Source: an uncultured archaeon (GTDB lineage Archaea; Asgardarchaeota; Jordiarchaeia; Jordiarchaeales; Jordiarchaeaceae). Taken from it: a stretch of DNA of 11,483 nucleotides. This document shows positions 1 through 11,483 of this stretch, piece after piece. Under the pieces are notes generated by a model, which was not told the DNA's origin, made no database searches, and was given only the letters and a program-made list of their open reading frames with translations. The DNA is taken from positions 1 to 11,483 of the forward strand of contig CAZECW010000011.1 in assembly GCA_964510585.1 (NCBI GenBank), given 5' to 3'. The translations under genes and the position numbers were made by a program. Position 1 is the first letter of the stretch, and every line of letters begins with the position of its first letter.

Positions 1-139
1 CCCCATGAGGGTGCCAACATAGACGCCGTTCCCTTTGAGGGAAGGGCGTGTTAACTGGGTGATGGCACACCCATTGCTTCGAAGGCTCCCGATGAGCCAG
101 AAGCAAGAATCTCCCGACTTTAGTCGCGGAGAGTGTCAA
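1..139 (+). mobile_element. Right end of an IS200/IS605-family (IS1341/IS605-type, TnpB-associated) element; left end and any tnpA/tnpB lie outside the window
   Basis: The sequence GAAT(107-110)-CTCCCGAC-TTTA-GTCGCGGAG(111-131)-AGTG-TCAA(136-139) matches the IS608-type right-end layout: guide tetranucleotide GAAT at the foot of a subterminal hairpin and cleavage site TCAA. One frame reads KQESPDFSRGECQ, typical of the region at or just after tnpB 3' ends. The lipoate-ligase homology on the - strand breaks at this TCAA junction. Confidence 0.85.
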
Positions 140-159
140 TTATTCCTGCTCTTCGATAA
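1..159 (+). ncRNA. Candidate TnpB omegaRNA (reRNA): 3' part of the scaffold plus a flank-derived guide of about 20 nt (140-159)
   Basis: Four consecutive hairpins are visible: ACGCC-G-TTCCC/GGGAA-G-GGCGT (23-49), TGGGTG/CACCCA (56-73), TTGCTTC..GGCTC/GAGCC..GAAGCAA (74-106) and the right-end hairpin (111-131). TnpB omegaRNAs are known to derive from the IS right end and take their guide from the 3' flank. Transcription is not shown by the sequence. Confidence 0.55.
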
Positions 160-506
160 AATTCTGTCACAATTTCTCCGGCCCAAATTTTTTCTGCCGT
201 GTCTATGTTGGGAAAGATATCTTTGGTAACCACTATCCCTGCTCCCATTCCCCCAGGGGGTGCCCATAATATTCCCGCTCCTGAGGGCCTTCTTCCAATT
301 AATATTTTGTCTCTCTTTATGTTTTCGTATTTTAGTCCATCCAAGTCCTCATATTTTCCCAAACTTACTGAGGGCCTGTCCCAAGTTAACACGAATAAAG
401 TGTCCGGAATCTTCTCTGCATCTCTCAGTCGGGGAAGCGAACCAAAAAGTACGAGTATTTCTACTCCTGTCATTCTATTATCCACAACAAATCTTGCTTT
501 AGTCAT
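140..506 (-). pseudogene. Lipoate-protein ligase A family (LplA/LipM-like) gene, 5' portion, interrupted by the IS at 140/139
   Basis: PDTLFVLTWDRPSVSLGKYE and IGRRPSGAGILW match the LplA 'P.vslG' and 'RR.SGGG' motifs. A GAGG RBS precedes ATG 506. After 122 native codons (...RRAGI) the frame runs into the IS end (IDTLRD*, TAA at 122-120). The catalytic-Lys half is not in the window. Confidence 0.75.
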
Positions 507-707
507 TCCTCTTCCTCTACAAAAATTAGTTGGTTCTAAAATGTTAGTTATAATTTTATTTAAACTTTTCCTTAAATTACATAGTTATAATTATTTTTGA
601 AGAGACCCAATTTACAAGTCAAAATGAGTAATGGAACACTACTAGTATATGAAGAATAAATGCACCTATACTGTAAAAAGGTGTGGAATCCTTTTCGTAG
701 TTAAAAA

Positions 708-724
708 AATTTAACCGTTAAATT
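708..724. promoter_or_regulatory. Palindrome AATTTAAC-C-GTTAAATT, candidate transcription-factor site
   Basis: Perfect 8-bp inverted repeat with a 1-nt spacer in the divergent intergenic region. AT-rich, so a chance match is possible. Confidence 0.3.
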
Positions 725-746
725 AAAATGTATCCCGCGTTATAAC

Positions 747-764
747 TGTTGTAATATTACAACA
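747..764. promoter_or_regulatory. Perfect 18-bp palindrome TGTTGTAATATTACAACA, candidate operator
   Basis: Exact dyad symmetry read from the sequence. It lies immediately upstream of a TATA-like CTTAAAAG (about 767-774) and about 75 nt before the aminotransferase start. Confidence 0.5.
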
Positions 765-837
765 TACTTAAAAGGCTCGAAAATCCTATTCGGGTCAAAA
801 GTGTTTCAATATTAACACTAAAAATAGGTGTACCCTA

Positions 838-2049
838 ATGAAAAGATCATTTGCAGAACTTTTCTCTAGCACTGCGAATAAGTTACAGGTTTCAGTGATT
901 CGCGAGCTTCTTAAGTTAACTCAGAAGCCGGAAGTCATATCCTTTGCTGGAGGATTACCTAATCCAGACGCCTTCCCAGTCCCTCAGATACACGAAATTT
1001 GCCCCAGTGTGATTGACAACCCAAACGCGCTCCAGTATGGAACTACGGAGGGTGTACCGGAACTAAGGGAAGCTCTCAAAAAAAGGATGGCTACGAAAAA
1101 TGTAAAGTGTGAAGTTGAAAACATTCAGATCACCTCGGGATCGCAGCAGGCATTGGACATACTGGGAAGAATATTGCTTAATCCCAACGACATTGTCCTC
1201 ACAACCTGCCCCACCTATTTGGGGGCCATTCAAGCCTTCGATTTTCAGAATCCAAGATATGAATTAGTGGAGATGGACGAACACTCCGTAATTGTGGAGG
1301 ACTTGGAGGCACGCCTAGAAGATATCCAAAAGAGGGGAGAACTTAAACGGTTAAAATTCTTCTATATAACACCGACCTTCCACAACCCCGCGGGAGTAAC
1401 CATCCCTGAAAAACGCCGGAAACAAATAATGGATCTCTGCAACGCATACGATGTTCTAATAATTGAGGACGACCCATACGGAGAGCTAAGGTACAGAGGA
1501 GTAGACCAGCCCTTACTAAAATCAATGGATACCGAAGACCGCGTAGTATACCTTAGCACCTTCTCAAAAATACTGGTGCCCGGCTTCCGCATCGCATGGA
1601 TGGTGGCACCCACCGAGCTTATCAAAAAATTCGTAATGGCCAAACAAGCAGTAGATCTCTGCACAACTACATTCACCCAATACATAGGAGCAGAATACCT
1701 TAGCCGGGGATACGTGGATCAACACATTAAAAAAATCAAAGAAATCTACGGAAGAAAAATGCATATAATGCTCCAATCTATGGCAGAATATTTCCCAGAA
1801 GAGGCGCGATATGCTGAACCCGATGGAGGAATGTTCGTCTGGGTGAGGCTCCCCGAGCACATAAACACCATAGAAATATTCCCCAAAGTCGTGGAAAAGA
1901 ACGTGGCATACGTGGTAGGCTCCGCATTCTATCCCAACGGAAAGGGACTCAACACCATGAGACTAAACTTTACACACCCCACAGACGAAAAAATCGAAGA
2001 AGGAGTAAAAAGGCTAGGAAACGTACTCCACGAAATACTTAAAAAATAA
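838..2049 (+). CDS. PLP-dependent aminotransferase class I/II (ARO8/LysN-like 2-aminoadipate/aromatic transaminase family)
   Basis: 403 aa. Motifs ISFAGGLP, LQYGTTEG, ITSGSQQALD, PTFHNPAG, EDDPYGEL, and STFSKILVPGFRIAW (PLP lysine). GGTG RBS at 827-830. Confidence 0.93.
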   Translation: MKRSFAELFSSTANKLQVSVIRELLKLTQKPEVISFAGGLPNPDAFPVPQIHEICPSVIDNPNALQYGTTEGVPELREALKKRMATKNVKCEVENIQITSGSQQALDILGRILLNPNDIVLTTCPTYLGAIQAFDFQNPRYELVEMDEHSVIVEDLEARLEDIQKRGELKRLKFFYITPTFHNPAGVTIPEKRRKQIMDLCNAYDVLIIEDDPYGELRYRGVDQPLLKSMDTEDRVVYLSTFSKILVPGFRIAWMVAPTELIKKFVMAKQAVDLCTTTFTQYIGAEYLSRGYVDQHIKKIKEIYGRKMHIMLQSMAEYFPEEARYAEPDGGMFVWVRLPEHINTIEIFPKVVEKNVAYVVGSAFYPNGKGLNTMRLNFTHPTDEKIEEGVKRLGNVLHEILKK

Positions 2050-2073
2050 GCCAACCAGTTAAAACCAAACATT

Positions 2074-2086
2074 CTTCCCTTTTTAA
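2074..2086 (+). terminator. Possible pyrimidine/T-tract terminator after the aminotransferase
   Basis: CTTCCCTTTTT about 25 nt after the stop codon. Archaeal terminators are typically oligo-T. Confidence 0.3.
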
Positions 2087-2464
2087 ACATTGGCTTTGCG
2101 ACTTGCCTTCTAGGAAAAATAATCCCGCCAAAGCAGTATTTTTTTAATCGCCGCTCGAAATCGCCCACATCAGGCTATGAAACCGATAGTGCTGGAGCTG
2201 GTGCAACAATAATTCTGTTTACTGTACGAGGAATTCCGGTTTCTACTTATTGCCCATCTTTTGAGAATGCCTTAATTTTTCTCCTCCCTTTAAGTATCAT
2301 TATTTTTTGGCGAAGTACTTATACCTGGTTGCTGGAGTATTCTGTTACTCTGGATGGGCATGTTTGGAAGTAGAAAGGTTAATTAGTGAATTTAAAAAAG
2401 ATATAGCTTCAGATTTGGATCCTTTAAATCGAATCCTGAAAATAATGGATTTGGGGCGTTTTAG

Positions 2465-3523
2465 TTGGTTTCGTTTGAGGATGTTAAATTTGGTTTCGTT
2501 CCTCCACAGTATCCCCTTGACCTTATCTTGGAGACAAGCCTTTACTCGGAAAAGAAGGGGTTGGACTCCATATGGATGGCTGACCACACTGTAGGAATAG
2601 GGATTAAGAACTGGGATTTTTACGAGGCTTGGAGTGTACTGAGTGCACTGGCGGTGCAGACCAAGAATATACTTTTGGGAACTTGTGTTAGTGATCCACA
2701 TAGGCGGCATCCCGCTGTTTTGGCGCAGACCCTCATGACTCTAGACCATCTATCTAAGGGAAGAGCGATGTTGGGACTGGGAGCTGGAGAGGCCATGAAT
2801 TTGGTGCCCTACCATATAGCCTGGGATCATCCGGTGACCCGCCTCAGGGAGGCAGCCGAAGTTATCATTAAACTCCTAACTGAGGATTTTTCTAATTATG
2901 AGGGTAAATTTTTCCAGCTTGAAAAGGCCTTTATACGACCTAAAGCGGTTCAGAATCCTCACCCACCAATATACTTTGGCGCAAACTCGCCTAAAACCAT
3001 GAGAATTTGTGCCGAGTTGGGGGATGGTTGGATTCCTGTAGGTACATTTATGAAGCCTCAGGACTACAAGGCGAAATTTGAGAAAATTAGGAAGATGGCT
3101 AAGGAGGCAGGCAGGGATCCGGAGAAGATTGAACCAGCTATGTTCAACTACATGGTCGTAGCAAAAGACTATGACACCGCCTTTAAGCTGGTAGAATTTC
3201 CCGCAAAGATGCTTCTAGCTGGCTCCTACGATACACTCAAAGAATATGGTGTGGAGCCGCCCAAAATGAAACTGGATGTGTTACACTTTGTATTTAACCC
3301 AGACACCATGATGGAGGCAGCAGGGGAAGTAATTAAGATGCCCATCAAACCCATTGAGGACAGATTCATTTTCGGTTCTCCCGACGACTGCATAGACAAA
3401 ATCGCCAAGTATGTAGAGGGAGGTGTGAGACACTTTGCCATGGCTCTCTATGTCCCCTCCCGATTGAACAGGGAAACACTGGAACTCTTTGTGGAAAAAG
3501 TGGTGCCCTACTTCCGACGATAG
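2465..3523 (+). CDS. LLM-class (luciferase-like) flavin/F420-dependent oxidoreductase
   Basis: 352 aa, TTG start. Motifs DSIWMADH, EAWSVLSALA, RHPAVLAQTLMTLDHLSKGRAMLGLGAG, PPIYFGA, ELGDGWIP and FIFGSPDDCIDKI. Cofactor (F420 vs FMN) cannot be resolved by eye. Confidence 0.92.
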   Translation: MVSFEDVKFGFVPPQYPLDLILETSLYSEKKGLDSIWMADHTVGIGIKNWDFYEAWSVLSALAVQTKNILLGTCVSDPHRRHPAVLAQTLMTLDHLSKGRAMLGLGAGEAMNLVPYHIAWDHPVTRLREAAEVIIKLLTEDFSNYEGKFFQLEKAFIRPKAVQNPHPPIYFGANSPKTMRICAELGDGWIPVGTFMKPQDYKAKFEKIRKMAKEAGRDPEKIEPAMFNYMVVAKDYDTAFKLVEFPAKMLLAGSYDTLKEYGVEPPKMKLDVLHFVFNPDTMMEAAGEVIKMPIKPIEDRFIFGSPDDCIDKIAKYVEGGVRHFAMALYVPSRLNRETLELFVEKVVPYFRR

Positions 3524-3653
3524 CATCCATTAAGTAATAGATTTCTTCAAAATTTTTTTACAAGGGAACGCGACCAAATCAAAAGGTCTTAGAAAAAGGT
3601 TTTGGCTCAATTGATGGATAAAATATTTATTTGTAGGAAAAGAAGCTGAGAAT

Positions 3654-4184
3654 ATGTCACTAGTTTATCCGGCGCATTTTGAGACTGTTATAAAGATGCG
3701 GGACGGTAGGGAGGCTTTTGTAAGGCCTCTGAAGCCTGATGTTGATAGGGAAAAGCTGTTTGAGATGTACAGCACCCTCTCTAAGGAAACAAATTATTAC
3801 CGCTTTTTGAACTATCAGCCAGTCACGAGGTGGATCGTGGAACATTGGTGTGACGTGAACTATGATGATAAAATGGCTCTTGTCGCCATAGTAAATGAAA
3901 ATGGGAGGGAGAGAATAGTTGCTGATTCCCGCTACTATCTGGATAAAACCACCGGGGAAGCGGAGATAGCCATAGTGGTGCACGACGATTACCAAGAAAA
4001 AGGTCTAGGAACAAAACTACTAAGTTACACAATTGAAGTAGCAAAAAAGTCGGGAGTAAAAAAGCTATACGCCTACCTCTCCCCCACAAACAGAAGAATA
4101 ATCCATGTGGTCAAAAAGCTTGGCTTCACAGTCAAATGGGTCTACGAAGTAGGGGAATATGGAGCAGAATTACATTTACAGTGA
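3654..4184 (+). CDS. Stand-alone GNAT N-acetyltransferase resembling the GNAT domain of Pat/Pka protein lysine acetyltransferases
   Basis: 176 aa. RDGREAFVRPL, LSKETNYYRF, VNYDDKMALVA and EAEIAIVVHDDYQEKGLGTKLL (acetyl-CoA motif A, QxxGxG) match the Pat-type GNAT pattern. Confidence 0.85.
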   Translation: MSLVYPAHFETVIKMRDGREAFVRPLKPDVDREKLFEMYSTLSKETNYYRFLNYQPVTRWIVEHWCDVNYDDKMALVAIVNENGRERIVADSRYYLDKTTGEAEIAIVVHDDYQEKGLGTKLLSYTIEVAKKSGVKKLYAYLSPTNRRIIHVVKKLGFTVKWVYEVGEYGAELHLQ

Positions 4185-4273
4185 AAACTTCCTCAAAGGT
4201 TTGTTTATATTTAAAGATATTCGCCTAATTTTAGATGAAATCCTAACCTTTTGCGAATATGTGAGTTGAGCAT

Positions 4274-5296
4274 TTACATTCTGAATGGTAGTTTTGTATC
4301 GTGGGGTATAATGTCTATGTATTTGCTTCTGAACTCGTCGCTTAGCATAGGACATTCATTGAATATGCAGGGTTCACTATACATAGGGTGACTCCACATT
4401 CTATCTAGAATTGCCTTAAGCGGTTCTTCTTTGACGTTTCCAAAAGCAAGTGGCATAAAACAGCAGGGCTGAACATCTCCGTAGGGAGAAATGTAAATAT
4501 ACTCTTTATCCGCAACGCCTCTACAGCGACTCGAGGCTTGATTTTGGAAGTAAAAGTCGCGGCAAACAAATGGGTACTCTGCAATTTTTCTAACTTTCTC
4601 CTCCTCCTGTTGTGACAACCTCACGTCCACATTGTATAACCATCTTCCAGCCGGTGTAGGTAATAAGTATCTTACCCCAGTGGCTCCCAGTTCTTTTGCC
4701 ATTTGAATTACTCTCTCAAAATCGCCATTAGCTAGATTCTCCTTTGTAATGTAGGTAGATATAACGACTTTTAAACCAACACTAAGGGCGTTTTTAACTG
4801 CCTGAACAGCCTTATCGAAGCATCCCCTATATCCTCGATACTCATCGTGTTCTTCTGGATGTGGGCTGTCAATGCTAACGTAAAGTAAATCCAACCCACT
4901 GTCCTTTAACTTTTGGGCATAATCTCTATTCACCTTAATTCCATTGGTGTCCAAAAAGACGAATACCGACTTTTTCGAAGCGTAACTTATCAACTCCATA
5001 AGGTCTTCTCTCAAGGTGGGTTCTCCGCCGAAAAAGTTGACCACCAAGGCTTTGTTAGCTTGATCTAATACACTCTTAACCTGCTCGGTTGTGAGTTCCC
5101 TGTGCTTCTCCTTAACATAATTGCCAACACAACAGTGTCTGCACCTACACTGGCAATCATAGGTTATACCAAACATCAAATAGGAGACAGGACCCTTTTC
5201 TTTAAGCCACAATCCCAGCTTCTCAAGATCAAAATCTAAAGGGATACCTTTCTCCAACCATAGAGTCCCATCATCCGCATATTTACTAGGTTGCAT
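4274..5296 (-). CDS. Radical SAM protein with C-terminal SPASM/twitch-type Cys region; substrate unknown
   Basis: 340 aa. CQCRCRHC (CxxxCxxC), FFGGEPTLR, DTNG, VSIDSP..HD.YRG, and a C-terminal CRG...YISPYGDVQPC..MPLAFGNV. GAGGTG RBS at 5302-5307. Confidence 0.9.
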   Translation of the reverse strand: MQPSKYADDGTLWLEKGIPLDFDLEKLGLWLKEKGPVSYLMFGITYDCQCRCRHCCVGNYVKEKHRELTTEQVKSVLDQANKALVVNFFGGEPTLREDLMELISYASKKSVFVFLDTNGIKVNRDYAQKLKDSGLDLLYVSIDSPHPEEHDEYRGYRGCFDKAVQAVKNALSVGLKVVISTYITKENLANGDFERVIQMAKELGATGVRYLLPTPAGRWLYNVDVRLSQQEEEKVRKIAEYPFVCRDFYFQNQASSRCRGVADKEYIYISPYGDVQPCCFMPLAFGNVKEEPLKAILDRMWSHPMYSEPCIFNECPMLSDEFRSKYIDIIPHDTKLPFRM

Positions 5297-5543
5297 TCCT
5301 ACACCTCATTCTTCTCCAGTTTTTGCTCATTATCTTAACTCTAAAATTTAAATAGTTTTTGATTTTGACCCCCGCTTATACAATTTCCTCTTTTCAGTAT
5401 ATATTTTTAATATCCTTAATTTTAAAATAAACAGAGTAAAACTGTTAGAAGGTATGTGAGAAAAATAAATAACAAAACGGTGCAAAAAAAGGCAAAAATC
5501 CTTAAATTATTCCTCACAATTACGATGAGCCAAAATCTCCACA

Positions 5544-6482
5544 CTATGCTCTCTGCTTTTCCTCCATTATGGCTGCTAGGAAGTCAATTATGAGTCTTGC
5601 AGCAATCTGAGCTGTGACTCCCGCCGGATCATAAAGTGGGTTTACCTCTACCAAGTCGAACCCCACAATGTTCCCCTTCTTCGGCAGTGCGGTGAGCATC
5701 TCTCTCATTTGAAGGTATGTAAATCCTCCGGGTTCAGGGGTTCCCGTTCCAGGAGCTGTAGATGGGTCAAGGGCATCTATGTCTATTGAAACGTAAATGT
5801 TTTCGGCTTCTGGGATTTGTTCCATAACCCATTTAGATCCCTGTTTTATGGCTCTCTCCGCCGTGATTACCTTGGAGCCATATTTTTTAGCTTCGTCTGC
5901 TATAATAGTGGTGTTGAGCAGTCCTCTGATGCCTATCTGCGTTATTCCTATAACATGTTCAAGTTCTGTAACTCTTTTGAAGGGGTTCGCGTGGCTGAGT
6001 CTCACTCCCGCAATATCATCTAGGAAGTCAAGGTGTGTGTCGAAGTGAACTATTTTTAGCTTTGTGTCTTTAAATGCTCTTATTACTGGGAAAGTGATGG
6101 AGTGGTCTCCTCCTAGAGTGATGGGAAACACCTTACGGCTTATGATTTCCTGAATGTATAGTGTTATTAAATTTAGGTTTAATTCATGTAGTGTGGGTGC
6201 TACTGGCACATCGCCGAAATCGATGACTTTGGTACGTGCAAGCTTGTATCTTCCAAGCTCAATATCATATATTCCCTTATCGGGTAGAAAGAATGGGCCA
6301 TAAATTTGAGAAGCTTCCCTTATAGCTCTTGGACCATATCTTGCTCCGGAACGGTTTGTGGTTCCCTGGTCTATGGGTGCTCCCACTATTGCTACGTCTA
6401 CACCTTCTAGGTTTCTGGTGTAGGGGAATTTGCAGAAGGTTGGAATACCCACGAAGGGCATCTCTTCACCTAAATTACTCAT
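5544..6482 (-). CDS. speB: Agmatinase (ureohydrolase/arginase superfamily)
   Basis: 312 aa. GARYGPRAIR, GGDHSIT, DTHLD (DxHxD), SIDIDALDP, PGTGTPEPGG, DLVEVNP. GGAGG RBS at 6490-6494. Related guanidino-hydrolase specificities cannot be excluded. Confidence 0.85.
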   Translation of the reverse strand: MSNLGEEMPFVGIPTFCKFPYTRNLEGVDVAIVGAPIDQGTTNRSGARYGPRAIREASQIYGPFFLPDKGIYDIELGRYKLARTKVIDFGDVPVAPTLHELNLNLITLYIQEIISRKVFPITLGGDHSITFPVIRAFKDTKLKIVHFDTHLDFLDDIAGVRLSHANPFKRVTELEHVIGITQIGIRGLLNTTIIADEAKKYGSKVITAERAIKQGSKWVMEQIPEAENIYVSIDIDALDPSTAPGTGTPEPGGFTYLQMREMLTALPKKGNIVGFDLVEVNPLYDPAGVTAQIAARLIIDFLAAIMEEKQRA

Positions 6483-6636
6483 CTAAAATCCTCCTTTAAA
6501 TTGAATATTTCTCTGTGCAGGAATGTTTAAAGATTTCTCCATAGAATTGGATTTGAGGCTGAATTTTTCCGATACTGTTTTAATGGTGTTTATATTTTTA
6601 AAATTCATAAAATTTGAAAAATGAGGTGTGTTTGTT

Positions 6637-7593
6637 TTGAGGGCTTTGCTGATTGGGAATGGGCAACTGAGGGTTGTTGAAGATTATCCTAAACCTAAAG
6701 TGAGACCTGGTTGGGTTTTAGTTAAGCCTACTGTTGTTGGAATTTGTAAAACAGATTTGGAGCTTGCTAAGGGATATATGGGTTTTAGTGGTGTTCCGGG
6801 GCACGAATTTGTGGGCATCGTAGTGGAAGGTGGCGACGAGAAATTTTTGGGGAAGCGTATTGTGGGTGAAATAAACTTTGCCTGTGGCTCCTGTGATTAT
6901 TGCGCGAATGGCTTGCAGAGACACTGCCCAAACAGAAGCGTTCTGGGCATACAGGGAGCCGATGGAGCTTTTGCCGAGTTTGTTGCGCTGCCTCAAAAGA
7001 ACATTCACATTGTCCCGGAAGGTGTAAGTGATGAGCAGGCGGTGTTCATAGAGCCCCTAGCAGCTTCCCTAGAAATTCTGATGCAGACCCACATTAAGCC
7101 CACTTGGAAAGTATTGGTTTTGGGAGACGGCAAACTCGGCTTACTAGTAGCACAAGTACTCAGACTAACTGGATGCGATCTGTTGCTAGTAGGCAAACAC
7201 GAGAACAAAATGAGAATAATGAGGAATATGGGGATTAAAACCGCAACTCCTCAAGATTTGGCTCAAATAAAGGCGGATCTGGTTGTTGAGTGCACAGGTA
7301 ATCCCAAAGGCTATAATCTGGCCAAGAGCCTGGTTCGCCCCTCGGGTATAATAGTAGCCAAAAGCACGTATCACCAGGAACTCAGTTTGAACTGGTCAGA
7401 AATAGTGGTGGATGAAATCACCATTGTTGGCTCCAGATGCGGGCCCTTCCCTCCAGCAATAAGGCTTCTGGAGCAGGGACTTATTGACACAAAGCCCCTA
7501 ATAACCGCCAAATACAAGTTCACAGATGTGCTAAAAGCCTTTGAACACGCCAGTGACTCCAAAGCAATAAAGATACTTGTGGAAATGTCATAA
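6637..7593 (+). CDS. Zinc-dependent medium-chain dehydrogenase/reductase (alcohol/threonine dehydrogenase-like)
   Basis: GICKTD and GHEFVG (catalytic Zn), CGSCDYCANGLQRHC (structural Zn), GDGKLG (NAD binding). The start is placed at TTG 6637 because GAGGTG (6623-6628) sits 8 nt upstream; the ORF track starts at GTG 6628. Confidence 0.9.
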   Translation: MRALLIGNGQLRVVEDYPKPKVRPGWVLVKPTVVGICKTDLELAKGYMGFSGVPGHEFVGIVVEGGDEKFLGKRIVGEINFACGSCDYCANGLQRHCPNRSVLGIQGADGAFAEFVALPQKNIHIVPEGVSDEQAVFIEPLAASLEILMQTHIKPTWKVLVLGDGKLGLLVAQVLRLTGCDLLLVGKHENKMRIMRNMGIKTATPQDLAQIKADLVVECTGNPKGYNLAKSLVRPSGIIVAKSTYHQELSLNWSEIVVDEITIVGSRCGPFPPAIRLLEQGLIDTKPLITAKYKFTDVLKAFEHASDSKAIKILVEMS

Positions 7594-7622
7594 AAAATTG
7601 TAGGGAAGTATCCTTCTTTGCT

Positions 7623-8849
7623 CTAAATTACTCCTAGGTTGCGTATCCAGGGCTGGAGCTCTTCTCCCAATAAGTTTAGGACATTGCTTTTTTCCATATT
7701 GGGCAGCACGCTGGCTATGTAGAATATTTTATCCTCCCACTCTAATGGTTTGCAAACAATGATTTCGTTTGGTCCTAACTCTAGGGATAGGGTGCTGATG
7801 TTTAGATGGTAATTTTTGGTTAAGTTTTCCCCGAGGCATATTATTCCCATGGTGGCGGTTGTCAATACTTCTTTGGTATCTGATGAGTAATCTGCTATTA
7901 GTAGAGCCCTATTATCAAATAGCATCAAATGTGTGCTTCCCAGTAGGTCTCCATAGTCCTTCAGTATTTCCTCAATCACCGGTATAGTGCCAATGCTTTT
8001 CCTTAGGGCTGACGAAAAGCTCAGAAATAATTTATCGCTTCTAAAAATACTCGTGTTATCTATGTGGTAGCGATTGATGTGGTGCTTCCTAAAAAGCTTG
8101 GCAATGTCCCTTTTGAGCTGCTCGATTCTCTCCCCCTCCTCCTGTGACACAGAACCCTCTGAATCTGACTTGTGAAGAAAAACTGTAGTGTAGGGAGCTT
8201 CGCCCGCTTTATTGTAAATGCCAAGGATACTCTCAAGGTAGCTTAGCGCCTCATTGTACCTTTCATAATCTTGGAGGTCGAGTACAAAAATTAGCAAATC
8301 TGTGTGGGCGAAAATCTCTCCATTTCCCTCAAAGTACTTTGTCCTATATTGTCCCCTTCCACCCAAATCGTATAGTTCCACCTGCATCCAACCAAATAAA
8401 GCAGCTTCCTCTCTATGTAGGCCTTCGGTTGGTCCTGTTTCGGTGGGAATCTGCTGATTTTTGGCGGCGGGTTCACATTTTGTTAGTGTGTGTATGATTG
8501 CGGTTTTCCCCGCATTGTCCAGCCCGGCAAAAACTATTTTTTTCGGTTCCTTAAACTTTCCTTCACCGACCGCCACAAGAATCTTCGCCGCATATATCCA
8601 CTTCTCAAGCTGAGACTTTTTAATTCCCGTAAGTTGACTTAGAGATTTGGCGTCTTGCTGTGAAAGTTTCTTAACATTAACAATTTTGAGGTCTTTCAAG
8701 CTTTTGACAGTCTCAGAATCTATTCCTACAATGATTTGAGGCGAGGATTTAGGAATCTTCTCGACCTCCATACGCTCCTTGACTAGAAAACCTCTTAATC
8801 TCTCAAAACTCATAAAAGGGGCAACCCCCATTTCTAAACAAATATCCAT
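7623..8849 (-). CDS. Small GTPase (Arf-like G1, Rag-like G4/G5) with N-terminal helix-hairpin-helix-like domain and C-terminal roadblock/longin-like domain
   Basis: G1 GLDNAGKT (aa109-116), G2 GPTEG, G3 DLGGR, G4 HKSD, G5 TSI. N-terminal IVGIDSETVKSL..IVNVKKL..QDAKSLSQLTGIKKSQLEKW resembles RadA-N/HhH repeats. C-terminal helix then MLFDNRALLIAD resembles roadblock folds. The start may be the downstream ATG at 8813 (GGGGGT upstream). Confidence 0.85.
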   Translation of the reverse strand: MDICLEMGVAPFMSFERLRGFLVKERMEVEKIPKSSPQIIVGIDSETVKSLKDLKIVNVKKLSQQDAKSLSQLTGIKKSQLEKWIYAAKILVAVGEGKFKEPKKIVFAGLDNAGKTAIIHTLTKCEPAAKNQQIPTETGPTEGLHREEAALFGWMQVELYDLGGRGQYRTKYFEGNGEIFAHTDLLIFVLDLQDYERYNEALSYLESILGIYNKAGEAPYTTVFLHKSDSEGSVSQEEGERIEQLKRDIAKLFRKHHINRYHIDNTSIFRSDKLFLSFSSALRKSIGTIPVIEEILKDYGDLLGSTHLMLFDNRALLIADYSSDTKEVLTTATMGIICLGENLTKNYHLNISTLSLELGPNEIIVCKPLEWEDKIFYIASVLPNMEKSNVLNLLGEELQPWIRNLGVI

Positions 8850-8977
8850 AAAAATTTTCAGCTATTTAATATACTTAGAGAAACTCAGTAATTATAACCC
8901 TTTTGTTGTCCTTACCGAAACAAAAAGGGTATGCTCCAACCCAAAAACCATCAAAAACATAAAAAACTGATAAAGTG

Positions 8978-8994
8978 TGAAAAGCATTTATTAA
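8978..8994 (+). promoter_or_regulatory. Candidate BRE-TATA promoter for the vWA gene
   Basis: Purine run GAAAAG followed by TTTATTAA (8987-8994), about 60 nt before ATG 9056. GAGG RBS precedes the start. Confidence 0.4.
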
Positions 8995-9055
8995 TCCCGA
9001 ATCTAAATAAAACACAGGAAAAACTCTCAACAACGAGAATGCGAGGCAAAACAAA

Positions 9056-10339
9056 ATGGAACTCGAAATAGTTAAAGCCGGCGAAACCGAAGGCGCAGCA
9101 TTCATCAACCCCGAAACCGCAAAAGCCGCAGGAATCTATGAAGGAAACATAATACTATTCGAAGACCCCACCACCGGAAATTTTGGAGCAGCACCAGTAT
9201 ACACCGACAAAAAAGTAGAGAAAAACAAAATAAAAATAGACTCAACCCTCGTAGAATCCAGCGGACTTGACGAAGGCTTCACAGTCACAGTCAAAAACTA
9301 CACAGGAAAACTACAACCCCTAAGAAAAATAGTAATAGGAGTAGAACCCCTAAGCGGACAACCCCCCGAAGAAGTATTCAAACAAGCCCAAGAAAGAAGG
9401 AGCGAACTCAAAAAACTGCTAAACAAAAGAGTAATCTTCAAAAAAATGAAACTCAGATGGAAAGAACTCGAATCCAACATATCCATAGAGTCCACAGAAC
9501 CCGAACTTAAAGGACAAGAATTCGCCCTAGTCAACTGGCCCGAAATAGAAAGAGCAGAAATAGTACCCATAGGACCAGCCATGCCCTTCAACGCCATACT
9601 CCTCATCGACGTATCAGGAAGCATGAGCACCAAAGACATGAAAGTCGTCAACATAGCACCCGCCAGAGAAGGAATAGTCAGCCTCCTAGAATCAGAACAA
9701 ATCTCAAACTTCCTCAGCAGATTCGAAGAAGGAGAAGAAGTAAAAAGAAGACATGGAGCAGCATTCGCCGCACTACTATACCTAGCAGAAAAAGTAGGAC
9801 GAGGATACGGCGAAAAAGTAGCCATAGCCACCTACCACGACGAGGCCAAAATCATAAAATTCGACGGAAACGACTACTACGAAGCCGCCACCGGAAAAAT
9901 AGACCAAGTAGCAGAAACCATACTAACAGAGGTCGCATACAAGACAGGAGGGTATACTAACATGAGTGACGCTCTTCGGAAGGCGATAAGCATTCTTAAG
10001 AGGTCGTTTAGGGGTTCCGGGCAGAACATGATTATCTTTATGACGGATGGCTTTCCGCAGGGTACAGATACTGAGGAAGCTGTTATGTCCATTGTGGAGA
10101 AGGAGCTGGCTGCGCTTCCCAATGTGGTTCTTTACACTGTGGGAGTTGGTGGAGAGGTTAATGATAGATTGATGGAGAACATCGCCACTGCGACTGGCGG
10201 AGTGTACTTTAAGGCTACTGATTTGGGTAAGCTTCTCAACTGGTACAGCGAACTGGCTAGAACCTTCACGAAGGCGGTTCACCAGAAGGAGAAGAAGCCA
10301 GAGGGAGAAGCCCCCACACCTGAAACTGAAGCCGAATAA
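9056..10339 (+). CDS. CDC48/p97/NSF-type N-domain (double-psi beta-barrel plus second subdomain) fused to a von Willebrand A domain; no AAA module
   Basis: vWA with intact MIDAS: LLIDVSGSM (9608), GGYTNMSDAL, FMTDGFP, LYTVGVG, ATATGGVYF. aa1-82 (AFINPETAKAAGIYEGNII...KIKID..SGLDEGFTVTVK) follow the CDC48_N pattern; aa85-172 (KIVI..P...LKKLLNKRV...IESTEP) follow CDC48_2. The vWA call is firm and the N-domain call is moderate. Confidence 0.8.
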   Translation: MELEIVKAGETEGAAFINPETAKAAGIYEGNIILFEDPTTGNFGAAPVYTDKKVEKNKIKIDSTLVESSGLDEGFTVTVKNYTGKLQPLRKIVIGVEPLSGQPPEEVFKQAQERRSELKKLLNKRVIFKKMKLRWKELESNISIESTEPELKGQEFALVNWPEIERAEIVPIGPAMPFNAILLIDVSGSMSTKDMKVVNIAPAREGIVSLLESEQISNFLSRFEEGEEVKRRHGAAFAALLYLAEKVGRGYGEKVAIATYHDEAKIIKFDGNDYYEAATGKIDQVAETILTEVAYKTGGYTNMSDALRKAISILKRSFRGSGQNMIIFMTDGFPQGTDTEEAVMSIVEKELAALPNVVLYTVGVGGEVNDRLMENIATATGGVYFKATDLGKLLNWYSELARTFTKAVHQKEKKPEGEAPTPETEAE

Positions 10340-10346
10340 ACAAGCT

Positions 10347-10363
10347 CCCCCCTTTTATTTTTA
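10347..10363 (+). terminator. Likely oligo-T terminator of the vWA gene
   Basis: CCCCCCTTTTATTTTT directly after the stop codon. Confidence 0.4.
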
Positions 10364-10455
10364 TGCTTTATCCTAAAGTTCACTTACTGCTAAACAACTC
10401 TCTAACTTTGTTTATTTGAAAAAATGGTTGTGTGCTCGCCAGAGGGGTTGAAGGG

Positions 10456-10632
10456 CAATGTCATTAAGTTAAGCTTAAATTCTTTTCTTATACTTGTGGG
10501 GATGTAGTTTTAGGAGTTTTTTATCCTCTATTTTGGATTCATACTTTAAAAAGAAGATCCATTAAACGCGCCTTTTTGAGGCGGAACAAAAACGAGAATG
10601 CATCACCCTAATACCTTAACTTAATGCCATTG
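10456..10632. mobile_element. 177-bp MITE, probably derived from the IS4 family
   Basis: TIRs CAATGTCATTAAGTTAAG (10456-10473) and CTTAACTTAATGCCATTG (10615-10632) match 17/18. They are flanked by an exact 11-bp direct repeat GGGTTGAAGGG (10445-10455 and 10633-10643). There is no ORF in the core. Confidence 0.88.
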
Positions 10633-10907
10633 GGGTTGAAGGGTGCTGGTCAGGTGAAACCTTTAGGAGTCAGACTTATTTTTATCCTAACAATTTTTTA
10701 ATTCTTATTTTGTATCTTTGTGGGTGACTGGTATTTAATAAAAATTGGGATAAAAGAAAGTGGGAGGGGCTTTTTATTTTGGTCGCCCTTCTACACCCTT
10801 TTTAGTCTCTCTCCGAGAAATAGTTTTGTTACAGTTTTAAGTTTTACTGGTTCTCTTTTGTTTATCTGAGCGTTTTGGGTATTTTTGGTTGCTTTTGTTT
10901 TGGTGCT

Positions 10908-11186
10908 TTATTTCGTTAGTGTTATTGTCATTGCGGATACGTTGCTTTGCCCTCGGTCGTTTTCTATGGTTTCGGTGCCGATCTCGATGCTTTTTACTTT
11001 TACGTCTGAAAGGAATCTTTCTCTTGTGATTTCTGCTACGTCTACGGCTCGGCTGATGGCTCTTCCTCGAGCCTTTATTGAGACTTCCTTTGTCCCCTTA
11101 TTGAATTGGGTTATTACTGCCAAAACATAGTTCATGGTTGGTTTACTATTTCCGACAAATACGGTATTTTCGTCACTTTCCGGCAT
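10908..11186 (-). CDS. albA: Alba (Sac10b family) chromatin DNA/RNA-binding protein
   Basis: [28 protein letters not shown] and NVSAMTITL are Alba signatures. The start is placed at ATG 11186 (92 aa) because GGTGA lies 5 nt upstream; the ORF track begins at GTG 11198. Confidence 0.95.
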
Positions 11187-11284
11187 TTTCTTCACCACAC
11201 TTTACTTAATTGTGCTTTTTGCTAGTTTTTCAAAAATTGTTTACATTGTTGCGTCTAGATGTTAACATTAGTTTATTATACGCA

Positions 11285-11300
11285 CTTATAAAAATTTTCA
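11285..11300. promoter_or_regulatory. Candidate TATA box in the divergent alba / downstream-gene promoter
   Basis: The - strand reads GAAAA-TTTTTATAAG (BRE-TATA-like, towards alba). The + strand reads CTTATAAA over the same bases. Confidence 0.4.
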
Positions 11301-11419
11301 TGTTTTTTTCTGACACTATGTTCCTCGTTAGTGAATTTTTGTAAAAAAAATGGGGGGTTAATGGAAAGAAATTTGTACGGGAGGGAGGTACCGTTATACC
11401 AAAAAGGTGATACGCGTCT

Positions 11420-11483
11420 ATGACGCAAACAACAGTACCTCCCACAGATTACGGCTTCATCCCTGTCGGTTCTCTGCCCAACA
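11420..11483 (+). CDS. 5' end of a probable gene running off the window (MTQTTVPPTDYGFIPVGSLPN...)
   Basis: AAGGTGA RBS ends 9 nt before ATG 11420, and the frame is open to the window edge. G.LP resembles the N-terminus of some archaeal radical SAM proteins (G-x-L-P-x-G-C-x-x-C), but only 21 codons are visible. Confidence 0.55.
   Translation, partial: MTQTTVPPTDYGFIPVGSLPN

Follow-up and report, generated by a model that had tools for sequence, protein, structure and literature searches.

The window analysed here, a stretch of DNA of 11,483 nucleotides taken at its full length, comprises positions 1 to 11,483 (forward strand) of contig CAZECW010000011.1 in assembly GCA_964510585.1, which represents an uncultured Jordiarchaeia archaeon (Asgardarchaeota). 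The longest open reading frame at the locus under study, 7623-8849 on the minus strand, is open throughout and encodes 408 amino acids. Its product combines an N-terminal domain of two helix-hairpin-helix motifs, (HhH)2, with a Rag-like GTPase domain and a C-terminal roadblock domain (Table 1). Unless model numbering is specified, residues are those of this reading frame.

Translation probably starts at Met13 (nt 8813), which would give a protein of 396 amino acids. This assignment comes from a comparison of six orthologous Jordarchaeia loci, among which the most divergent relative (L004) has an in-frame stop upstream of its Met13 equivalent, and GGGG(G)T is kept upstream of Met13 in all six. 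Because of this stop and the conserved motifs upstream of Met13, the shorter coding sequence is the more likely one. The Met13 equivalent is also the start in most database homologues. Farther upstream, a purine-rich AAAAGGG stretch stands before the TTATAAT box, and the candidate promoter GTTATAAT is kept in 6/6 loci, including that of a relative with 52% identity.

The gene is real, and all three domains of its product are under purifying selection. When compared with two congeners, the whole gene has a dN/dS of 0.19-0.23 at an unsaturated dS of about 0.3, and the values for each of the three domains lie between 0.09 and 0.33.

Table 1. Positions of the gene, its upstream elements and the domains and motifs of its product
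Feature	Position	Strand	Basis or remark
TTATAAT box, candidate TATA/BRE promoter	8891..8897	-	in the 242-bp divergent intergenic region; putative function
GGGGGT, Shine-Dalgarno-like motif	8824..8829	-	11-16 nt upstream of the Met13 ATG; putative function
12 in-frame codons, probable untranslated 5' leader	8814..8849	-	missing or stop-interrupted in the L004 orthologue
Likeliest coding sequence (HhH - Rag-like GTPase - roadblock)	7623..8813	-	396 aa, Met13 start, stop codon included
N-terminal leader, residues 13-32, two short helices	8754..8813	-	model helices 3-9 and 17-22 (model numbering), pLDDT 80-84
(HhH)2 domain, residues 33-95	8565..8753	-	HHH_5 profile, alignment, shape, model pLDDT 89-96
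Rag/Gtr-like G domain, residues 101-285	7995..8549	-	Pfam, VIA, Foldseek
G1 P-loop GLDNAGKT, residues 109-116	8502..8525	-	sequence motif
G3/switch II DLGGR, residues 161-165	8355..8369	-	Arg at the catalytic Gln position
G4 HKSD, Rag-type, residues 226-229	8163..8174	-	sequence motif
G5 TSI, Rag-type, residues 266-268	8046..8054	-	sequence motif
C-terminal roadblock domain, residues 286-408	7626..7994	-	model topology, pLDDT 79-94; Rag superpositions
Predicted homodimer interface, residues 328-359 (316-347 in model numbering)	7773..7868	-	roadblock helix alpha2 and edge strand beta3

Domains of the protein

The central part of the protein is best described as a Rag/Gtr-like G domain. The Pfam profile Gtr1_RagA (PF04670) matches residues 104-327 over profile positions 1-219 of 232 with 81.1 bits (cut-off 22), and the Arf profile (PF00025) matches the same protein with a lower score of 60.8 bits. 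A sequence-only reading of this DNA had described an Arf-type P-loop and PTxG switch I alongside Rag-type HKxD and TSI motifs, and this mixture is real: the P-loop is letter-identical to that of Sar1 (in an alignment to SAR1b), the PTxG of switch I (G2) occurs as GPTEG at residues 139-143, and the HKxD and TSI motifs are the Rag/Gtr variants of G4 and G5. The protein shares its P-loop with Sar1, and its PTxG switch I and Arf profile match with the Sar1/Arf proteins generally. In these, the N-terminal amphipathic helix is free and a roadblock domain is lacking, whereas here an (HhH)2 domain stands before the G domain and a roadblock domain after it.

The same reading had divided the protein into three domains with a roadblock at the C-terminus, and structural modelling bears this out. 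The AlphaFold model used here, built from an alignment of 36 rows, reaches a pLDDT of 88.5 and a pTM of 0.88 with the N-domain at 80-96, and it supersedes an earlier model from a 19-row alignment in which residues 1-100 remained at pLDDT 24-52. The N-terminus models as (HhH)2, and the C-terminus adopts the roadblock topology (alpha-beta-beta-alpha-beta-beta-beta-alpha) and can be superposed on that of Rag proteins. Among VIA comparisons, the highest Z score belongs to LokiRagO (PDB 8yl2; Z 28.3 over 282 residues, rmsd 3.3, 25% identity), followed by RagC (24.8), Gtr1 (23.2) and Gtr2 (22.8). Foldseek likewise returns 8yl2 as the best match (E 2e-20), with G and roadblock domains aligned jointly, and eukaryotic Rag/Gtr clusters of the Atlas also superpose (TM by row up to 0.82).

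LokiRagO, a homotetrameric RagA-like GTPase from Lokiarchaeota, also ranks first by sequence among PDB entries (E 1.5e-22). It has the same Rag-like G domain and C-terminal roadblock, a GLDNxGKT P-loop and an HKxD G4 motif. However, it is a paralogue without the HhH domain (gene L062, 341 aa, with an N-terminal tail of only 46 residues), it keeps DLGGQ in switch II, and on our tree it branches apart from the groups that carry HhH. Together with the LokiRagM structures (8zla, 9m28), 8yl2 means that the pairing of G domain and roadblock in Asgard archaea is already structurally characterised; a text search found no paper on the 8yl2/LokiRagO entries. The eukaryotic RagA/B, RagC/D, Gtr1 and Gtr2 proteins (PF04670) share the G and roadblock domains, HKxD and TSI (Z 22.8-24.8 over 260-285 residues). 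They lack an HhH domain and a Sar/Arf-type P-loop, and the switch-II Gln of RagA and RagC is Arg here. In addition, the Ragulator/TORC1 context of the eukaryotic proteins is absent in this archaeon. Small GTPases also work with dimeric roadblock domains in the MglA-MglB system of Myxococcus and in Ragulator, although the roadblock domains of these systems are separate polypeptides that serve as GAP or scaffold, rather than being fused to the GTPase.

Modelling of two copies predicts a homodimer that pairs through its roadblock domains (Table 1), in a manner resembling the Rag heterodimer. The ipSAE is 0.64 (0.68, 0.64 and 0.62 in individual runs), compared with 0.00 for the best of three controls, with 94% agreement of contacts between runs and a pLDDT of 83 or more for the partners. 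The pair passes the mark applied to such scores, which is reached by 20/30 proteins solved as pairs and by 1/23 solved as single chains; in this case the score may reflect likeness to, or memory of, solved Rag/Gtr dimers. The suggestion that the HhH module might serve oligomerisation is not supported by this prediction, which places the contact on the roadblock domain and not on the HhH. Two roadblock-bearing paralogues encoded in the same genome (on contigs C76 and C62) could be alternative partners in heterodimers. Oligomeric state varies within the Rag-like family, from the monomer of LokiRagM to the tetramer of LokiRagO.

A folded helical region of 83 residues precedes the G domain in the model. 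It begins with a leader whose FLK motif can be aligned across Asgard orthologues, and it continues with hairpin 1 (VGID), a connector helix (VKKLS), hairpin 2 (TGIKK) and a long helix (EKWIYAAKIL) leading into the G domain. The Pfam HHH_5 profile (PF14520) matches residues 42-89, which coincides with the segment (nt 8738-8574, residues 38-92) that had been proposed as HhH. This copy scores 21.4 bits within the whole protein and 25.0 bits alone, where the Pfam cut-off is 27, and HHH_5 is matched by 10/10 family members with a best E of 1.9e-8. A profile of the N-domain searched against 1.84 billion representatives retrieves matches that are all HHH_5 proteins (to E 1.7e-9), with a single full-length representative of the N-domain among them because the N-domains of distant orthologues are too diverged for the profile. 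The same profile has no significant match among PDB sequences (best E 0.68). When aligned to bona fide HHH_5 domains, the N-domain is 28-38% identical and retains both hairpins, with VGID opposite GIG/GVG and TGIK opposite GI/GV. A shape search of the Atlas with the N-domain part returns HHH_5 clusters with a TM by query of 0.64-0.71, and both Rad51/HHH_5 clusters and the C-terminal repeats of NusA are among these matches. In sequence, the domain is nearest to HHH_5 domains that occur in fusions with ribosomal proteins, Alba and Mrr nucleases.

Resemblance to the N-terminal domain of RadA/Rad51, which the sequence-only reading proposed, holds for the generic HHH_5 class of which that domain is one member, and does not extend to a RadA-specific relationship. 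The best E against RAD51D_N is 0.015 (matched by 7/10 members) and that against the Rad51 N-terminal domain 1b22 is 1.1; the protein has no RecA core, and we found no RadA-specific affinity over other HHH_5 domains. Members of the HHH_5 class, including the RadA/Rad51 N-terminal domain, likewise have two helix-hairpin-helix motifs and a connector helix. What sets this protein apart is that hairpin 1 reads GID and that the domain is fused to a small GTPase, rather than to a RecA-type ATPase, nuclease, polymerase or ribosomal protein.

An Asgard-wide orthologous group

The protein represents Jordarchaeia in an orthologous group of three-domain proteins, about 400 amino acids long, that spans the Asgard archaea. 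The search of other genomes that had been suggested alongside the sequence-only reading recovered the same architecture in at least 10 Asgard families, with reading frames verified in 10 families and identities of 25-34%. Genome G137, for instance, encodes an orthologue (L051, 1390-2592, plus strand) and genome G134 does not, and L013 (1276-2484, minus strand) carries one with an acidic N-domain. In a six-frame search of genomes, 146 of the 150 matches listed begin at query residue 55 or earlier and lie in frames of about 400 amino acids, and the matches run from query residue ~28 to 350-405, collinear over all three domains. A profile search collects at least 250 protein clusters at E<=1e-10, all annotated 'Arf-like', and an ESM Atlas cluster of 376 members superposes over 387 residues (TM 0.87). 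Although the sequence-only reading had not recognised the architecture from characterised proteins, and our literature search for an HhH-GTPase-roadblock architecture in Asgard archaea found no publication, such that the three-domain design appears to be undescribed in print as far as this search shows, it is not unusual. It is old and widespread among Asgard archaea, with hundreds of database entries that date back to the first Lokiarchaeum metagenome.

A fusion specific to the Jordarchaeia lineage was considered and rejected. A word-indexed search had returned 11 close Jordarchaeia clusters together with proteins without an N-domain, and this picture was overturned by the six-frame and profile searches; the apparent restriction arose because single-sequence word-indexed searching is insensitive. 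We aligned 36 orthologues, nine from Jordarchaeia and 27 from other lineages. On a tree computed from G and roadblock columns and taken without eukaryotic sequences, the rows that bear the N-domain cluster (4 changes versus a shuffled mean of 11.8), and the Jordarchaeia clade nests among them on a stem branch of 1.14.

A further comparison is with a group of 402-amino-acid proteins named 'ADP-ribosylation factor-like protein' in Thor-, Loki-, Odin-, Hermod- and Hodarchaeota MAGs (e.g. LCGC14_0985430), whose three domains agree in kind, order and relative position and which show 25-31% full-length identity. Unlike the Jordarchaeia copy, members of this group have an acidic N-domain with a degenerate second hairpin and an intact GGQ. 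More broadly, the net charge of the N-domain spans -9 to +12 across lineages: the largest group of orthologues has an acidic domain (-1 to -5) whose hairpin 2 has no glycine, and only some lineages have a basic one, among them Jordarchaeia, in which it is strongly so (+7 to +12, pI 9.8-11.5). Given the acidic domain and degenerate hairpin of the largest group, nucleic-acid binding is unlikely to be a conserved role of the N-domain. For the copy studied here such binding would be plausible, and its basic N-domain could just as well be suited to an acidic partner protein or to the protein's own acidic roadblock domain (pI 4.5).

GTPase motifs and gene neighbourhood in Jordarchaeia

The switch-II GGQ is present in 27/27 other orthologues versus 0/9 Jordarchaeia copies, in which the Gln position is occupied by R, K or L or the motif is missing altogether. 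Changes from Q to L, K or R are the classical 'GTP-locked' substitutions. One Jordarchaeia lineage has lost all G motifs, and a sister subclade has NKxD as G4. Within Jordarchaeia, identity is 66-97% for the HhH domain and 60-93% for the roadblock, and it falls to 41-86% for the GTPase domain. Moreover, in a closed genome of the same genus the ADH gene is followed directly by the VWA gene, with the GTPase gene absent between them.

The copy in the window would still bind guanine nucleotides, given that G1, G2, G4 and G5 are intact, and its hydrolysis of GTP would be poor when acting alone, given the replacement of the switch-II Gln by Arg. Such a protein would then function either as a long-lived scaffold in its GTP form or in reliance on a partner that supplies catalysis. 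Given that HhH and roadblock are the best-conserved domains, and that the G motifs have disappeared from one lineage and the gene itself from one species, constraint in Jordarchaeia might have moved from the GTPase cycle onto the HhH and roadblock flanks.

Adjacent genes provide few clues. The Jordarchaeia neighbourhood (VWA, ADH, arginase, radical SAM) is syntenic throughout, and for this reason adjacency says little on function. In the 402-amino-acid group, the gene stands head-to-head with a VWA-RING gene at 12 loci in two families, and a shared orthologous VWA partner was considered and discarded: the best relatives of the Jordarchaeia VWA protein in Thor-type genomes are other genes (43-47% identity) and not VWA-RING, and the VWA neighbour in this window, a CDC48N-VWA gene at 9056-10339, is not orthologous to the VWA-RING neighbours. 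The gene is head-to-head with an scpB-smc operon in two Asgard families and has a condensin-like HEAT neighbour in another subgroup. No consistent partner gene was found across the neighbourhoods compared. A relative with ~92% identity is represented by contigs in two hot-spring runs that are labelled metatranscriptomic and are probably DNA; its coding sequence has no indel, and one of the contigs covers both divergent genes.

Possible functions and their meaning

We consider it probable that this member of the Asgard group is a self-pairing, nucleotide-binding and hydrolysis-impaired protein whose HhH domain forms a tether to nucleic acid or to an acidic protein. Self-pairing would use the helix and edge strand of the roadblock domain, as in Rag/Gtr proteins and MglB, and the dimer would display two G domains and two HhH modules. 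The basic HhH domain has near-canonical hairpins followed by Lys/Arg, and its likeliest ligand would be the DNA or RNA backbone, or else an acidic protein. In this way, the protein would act as a dimeric tether that links nucleic acid to whatever binds the G/roadblock platform. For every member of the HhH-bearing group, nucleotide binding, hydrolysis, dimerisation and nucleic-acid binding are putative activities.

The main competitor, which we regard as possible if somewhat doubtful, holds that the N-domain is a protein-protein module, a degenerate 'pseudo-HhH' that recruits a partner or docks on the GTPase and that binds nucleic acid in no lineage. The acidic repeats of NusA and the partner-binding HhH pairs of ERCC1-XPF provide comparators for such a domain. 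The positions conserved Asgard-wide belong to the hydrophobic core or a helix face (L-x-GID, I-x-x-L, EKWI-x-x-AKIL) and not to a basic surface, and the wide charge range between lineages, the GID rather than GIG of hairpin 1 in most members and the NusA repeats among the shape matches all point the same way. Furthermore, the pTM of the model, together with the superposition on the independent Atlas model, suggests that the N-domain holds a fixed position. However, Jordarchaeia N-domains are uniformly basic with Lys/Arg pairs after hairpin 2, and several have canonical GIG hairpins, which are features typical of non-specific backbone binders. The closest relatives of the domain, fused to ribosomal proteins, Alba or Mrr, also come from nucleic-acid contexts.

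It is unlikely, although worth considering, that the last helix of the N-domain, EKWIYAAKILVAV (residues 78-95), is the equivalent of the amphipathic helix of Arf/Sar proteins and is docked on the G domain or released according to nucleotide state, thereby moving the HhH domain or attaching the protein to a membrane. This helix is the most conserved N-terminal element in all orthologues and leads straight into strand beta1, and the P-loop and switch I are of the Sar/Arf type. In addition, Arl2 (9edr_G; Z 20.1, rmsd 4.5, 188 residues) aligns from model residue 72, which places its N-terminal helix over the last part of this one. Such a switch is harder to reconcile with a helix that is continuous with a folded domain, rather than a free amphipathic peptide, and with the prediction of one model state. 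To our knowledge, there is no interswitch toggle in the Rag family.

Very improbable is the notion of an ordinary Arf-like GTPase with unremarkable extensions, or of a decaying and functionless Jordarchaeia gene: the NCBI names 'ADP-ribosylation factor-like protein' and '50S ribosome-binding GTPase', the loss of the catalytic Gln, the lineage without G motifs and the species without the gene would favour it, but Gtr1_RagA outscores the Arf profile, the best structural matches are to Rag proteins and extend over both their G and their roadblock domain, such Asgard 'Arfl' proteins group near Rag and not within the Arf clade in a published phylogeny (PMC11914678), and dN/dS is ~0.2 in all three domains with HhH and roadblock identities of 60-97%.

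Extending the tether reading that we prefer, one could speculate, at long odds, that HhH-Rag proteins are dimeric nucleotide-gated tethers that connect DNA or chromatin to a roadblock/GTPase platform, with the Jordarchaeia copies having become a GTP-locked or, in one lineage, nucleotide-free and thus constitutive DNA-binding scaffold. This would fit the head-to-head pairing with scpB-smc and the condensin-like HEAT neighbour. If instead the HhH domain merely binds proteins, the group would represent an ordinary variant of domain architecture.

Whichever of these applies, the Jordarchaeia clade offers a natural experiment, with 'GTP-locked' Q to L/K/R copies and a motif-less copy whose flanks are conserved; conservation of the flanks despite the loss of G motifs suggests which parts carry function. 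Asgard archaea have dozens of eukaryote-like small GTPases, to which current thinking ascribes membrane-related roles on the model of Rab, Arf and Rag. A widespread and ancient Rag-like subgroup with a domain typical of nucleic-acid binders provides a concrete alternative to such membrane roles, and, if its members do act as chromosome tethers, they would form a small-GTPase system whose site of action in Asgard archaea is the chromosome instead of the membrane.

Architecture of the HhH-Rag protein

The open minus-strand frame of 408 codons at 7623-8849 encodes, as computation has shown, a protein under selection in which an (HhH)2 domain is followed by a Rag-like G domain and then by a roadblock. 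The sequence-only reading had described these parts and their motifs accurately. The G motifs are readily recognized (see the table), the P-loop is that of Sar1 letter for letter when the two are aligned, and Pfam Gtr1_RagA matches residues 104-327 at 81.1 bits (cut-off 22), ahead of Arf at 60.8 bits; HHH_5 reaches 21.4 bits over residues 42-89, under its cut-off of 27. The true start is probably Met13, which would give 396 aa (nt 7623-8813). At L004, the most divergent orthologous locus, an in-frame stop lies upstream of the equivalent ATG, and all six Jordarchaeia loci share both a GGGG(G)T motif 11-16 nt 5' of this codon and a GTTATAAT box ~80 nt 5' of it. Counted from Met13, the divergent intergenic region (window 8850-9055) measures 242 bp; it holds a conserved AAAAG(G/A)GTTATAAT element, and relatives in hot-spring runs carry several small indels there and none in the CDS. 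Against two congeners (dS ~0.3), dN/dS for the whole gene is 0.19-0.23, and purifying selection acts on each of its three parts.

In a first AlphaFold model, for which 19 sequences were used, the first 100 residues were not resolved. A second, whose 36 input sequences included distant orthologues, reached pLDDT 88.5 and pTM 0.88, with pLDDT 80-96 in the N-terminal domain. By structure comparison against the PDB (VIA), residues 90-390 superpose on several solved Rag-type proteins, namely the Lokiarchaeota G-roadblock protein LokiRagO (8yl2; Z 28.3, 282 residues aligned, rmsd 3.3, 25% identity), RagC (Z 24.8, 285 residues), Gtr1 (Z 23.2, 268 residues) and S. pombe Gtr2 (Z 22.8, 260 residues). 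Foldseek, which had been recommended as a check on such a model, likewise matched Rag-type proteins. The C-terminal elements run alpha-beta-beta-alpha-beta-beta-beta-alpha, which is the roadblock order; this topology and the superposition bear out the roadblock assignment made earlier.

The N-terminal domain is all-helical in the model. In an alignment with bona fide HHH_5 domains (28-38% identity), the helices correspond, as do both hairpins, VGID and TGIK. Pfam HHH_5 is matched by 10 of 10 family members (best E 1.9e-8), and a profile of the domain, searched against 1.84 billion representatives, matches only HHH_5 proteins (down to E 1.7e-9), with L32e, L13e, S13 and Mrr nuclease as their fusion partners. 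An Atlas shape search with residues 13-99 returned HHH_5 clusters (TM by query 0.64-0.71), including Alba-HhH, Rad51-HhH, NusA C-terminal repeats and Pol IV. The domain had been likened to the N-terminus of RadA/Rad51; its HhH nature is upheld by these matches, but the resemblance is one between fellow HHH_5 members and no closer.

Coordinates of sequence motifs (ORF numbering) and of neighbouring genes at HhH-Rag loci
Feature	Location	Remark
P-loop GLDNAGKT	residues 109-116	
Switch I GPTEG	residues 139-143	
Switch II DLGGR	residues 161-165	
G4 HKSD	residues 226-229	
G5 TSI	residues 266-268	
VWA-RING gene	L013:2717-3856:+	11 further loci: L014, L016, L018, L039, L042-L048
scpB-smc	L049:6245-10951, L038:6301-10851, L035:3951-8789, L015:704-1375	
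HEAT-repeat protein, 604-617 aa	L034:3083-4897:-, L036:2914-4767:-	directly downstream of HhH-Rag paralogue
G-roadblock paralogue without HhH domain	L034:6405-7313:-	directly upstream of HhH-Rag paralogue
Similar tandem pair	L039:5010-6191 and 6294-7208	

Distribution among Asgard archaea

The three-domain protein belongs to an old Asgard family. A lineage-specific fusion was suggested by a word-indexed search, which returned just 11 close clusters, all from Jordarchaeia/'Freyarchaeota', and was ruled out by six-frame genome and alignment-profile searches. Of the 400 genomes of the phylum that were searched in six frames, 203 gave matches at E<=1e-20, and 146 of the 150 matches listed start no later than residue 55 of the query, with open frames measuring ~385-435 aa. 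When ORFs from ten families were aligned, the HhH domain proved alignable throughout (FLK ... L-x-GID ... I-x-x-L ... EKWI-x-x-AKIL). The resulting profile matched 250 or more clusters at E<=1e-10, and the top 120 are without exception 401-403 aa in length; the clusters carry the database name 'ADP-ribosylation factor-like protein' and come from MAGs of Thor-, Loki-, Odin-, Hermod- and Hodarchaeota, with one originating from the original Lokiarchaeum metagenome. Looking for the same architecture in other genomes, as the sequence-only reading had advised, located it in at least ten Asgard families. An Atlas cluster of 376 members (402-aa Asgard proteins) superposes on the model at TM 0.87 over 387 residues; the three domains are even positioned alike with respect to one another.

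When the tree is computed from the G and roadblock columns alone, sequences bearing the HhH domain cluster (4 label changes versus 11.8 expected). The Jordarchaeia clade falls within this cluster, and its stem branch is long (1.14). LokiRagO (L062, 341 aa), which has only a 46-residue tail where HhH-Rag proteins have the HhH domain, falls outside these groups and is therefore a paralogue.

Rag-like GTPase-roadblock fusions have been known in Lokiarchaeum since 2016 (PMC4917890), Rag-like architectures of the Asgard archaeon MK-D1 were modelled in 2024 (PMC10933270), and a 2025 paper put Asgard 'Arfl' proteins close to Rag (PMC11914678). None of these three papers mentions an HhH domain, and our literature text searches found no paper describing one on such GTPases. 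The protein is a Rag-like G-roadblock GTPase with an extra HhH domain, a variant common in Asgard genomes and undescribed in the literature.

Predicted dimerization, paralogues and gene neighbourhoods

A two-copy prediction passed with ipSAE 0.64 (runs 0.68, 0.64 and 0.62; best of three controls 0.00). Among proteins of solved structure, 20 of 30 pairs attained this mark, compared with 1 of 23 single chains. Because Rag/Gtr dimers have already been solved, the pass indicates likeness rather than proof. The runs share 94% of contacts, and partner pLDDT is at least 83. The protein is predicted to dimerize via its roadblock domain, through a symmetric interface of helix alpha2 and edge strand beta3 (ORF residues 328-359) that lies outside the HhH domain. 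Heterodimers with G-roadblock paralogues are also possible, since two more paralogues without the HhH domain are present in the window's genome (contigs C76 and C62) and three loci of other families carry an HhH-bearing gene in tandem with such a paralogue.

Other arrangements were observed as well. A Lokiarchaeia paralogue (L055:1051-2202:-, genome G142) keeps the HhH and G domains and has its roadblock swapped for a tail, in which a PPPPPPP run precedes a short basic helix-like motif and which may be actin-related (WH2-like). Directly downstream of another HhH-Rag paralogue, L017:526-1470:- encodes a 314-aa protein, perhaps a longin-Arf fusion, with a strong Arf domain (E 1e-47) and an N-terminal extension of ~140 residues.

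In Jordarchaeia, the GTPase gene stands head-to-head with a VWA gene whose product has a weakly CDC48_N-like N-terminus, an adjacency that is uninformative because the whole region is syntenic there. Congeners share 86-97% identity in the VWA protein, compared with 52-88% in the GTPase. The window's copy (9056-10339, +; 427 aa; CDC48_N-like match at E 0.005) ends in an acidic Pro/Glu tail, has two paralogues per genome (~45% and ~37% identity), and shares 43-47% identity, over its VWA domain, with a portion of ORFs of 730-760 aa in Thor-type genomes. At 12 loci from the Thor-type family and one other, a VWA-RING gene lies head-to-head with the HhH-Rag orthologue; its product has C-terminal RING-type zinc fingers (zf-RING_2, Prok-RING_1) and weak Ssl1/Tfb4-like similarity. 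Assignment of the Jordarchaeia VWA gene to this lineage was rejected, as the best relatives of its VWA domain in VWA-RING genomes are other genes. Two other families were sampled in four genomes, and in every one scpB is head-to-head with the orthologue and is followed by smc. Another subgroup has a downstream gene for a HEAT protein whose repeats are Cnd1/PDS5-like. In the window's own genome, scpB sits on a different contig. Neighbourhoods differ among families, so there is no single conserved partner, and the chromosome-related neighbours are only a hint.

Loss of the catalytic glutamine in Jordarchaeia

What is new here is that this lineage specifically has lost the catalytic Gln and, in one case, every G motif. 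Switch II reads GGQ in 27 of 27 non-Jordarchaeia orthologues of the alignment and in none of nine Jordarchaeia copies, where the Gln position holds Arg in the window's copy, Lys in its closest relatives and Leu in the sister subclade. A Leu here is the classical substitution that locks RagA in its GTP form. P0012, the protein of L004, occurs in two metagenomes, and its lineage no longer has the P-loop Lys/Thr, DxxG or NKxD. This pseudo-GTPase family member (L004:6001-7182:+) has GLDGSGIA as P-loop and HGGD as G4, without DxxG, and its HhH and roadblock domains are still 66-67% and 60-72% identical to those of relatives. Across Jordarchaeia, identity is highest in the HhH domain (66-97%), followed by the roadblock (60-93%), and lowest in the G domain (41-86%). 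The closed genome G117, from the same genus, has no GTPase between its ADH and VWA genes; at this syntenic place (L068, G117:C1:2438214-2446464, 4723-7293) the two lie ~320 bp apart and HhH-Rag is cleanly missing.

The Jordarchaeia HhH domain is strongly basic (net +7 to +12, pI 9.8-11.5), with canonical GIG hairpins in several members and KK or RR after hairpin 2. In the largest group of orthologues, by contrast, the domain is acidic, at net -1 to -5, and its hairpin 2 has no glycine. We consider it plausible, at somewhat under even odds, that the basic domain would bind a nucleic-acid backbone; binding to an acidic protein instead is somewhat less likely. Another possibility is that the domain's conserved last helix acts like the N-terminal helix of Arf/Sar proteins, coupling nucleotide state to HhH position, for which the sole hint is an alignment with Arl2 that starts at model residue 72. 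The original observation is confirmed, while its interpretation, that an HhH module could couple a eukaryote-like GTPase to nucleic acid or oligomerization, is supported in part only, and the architecture is a common one. As to mechanism, the window's copy would bind GTP but hydrolyse it poorly by itself, and in Jordarchaeia the function of the protein would rest mainly on its HhH and roadblock domains.
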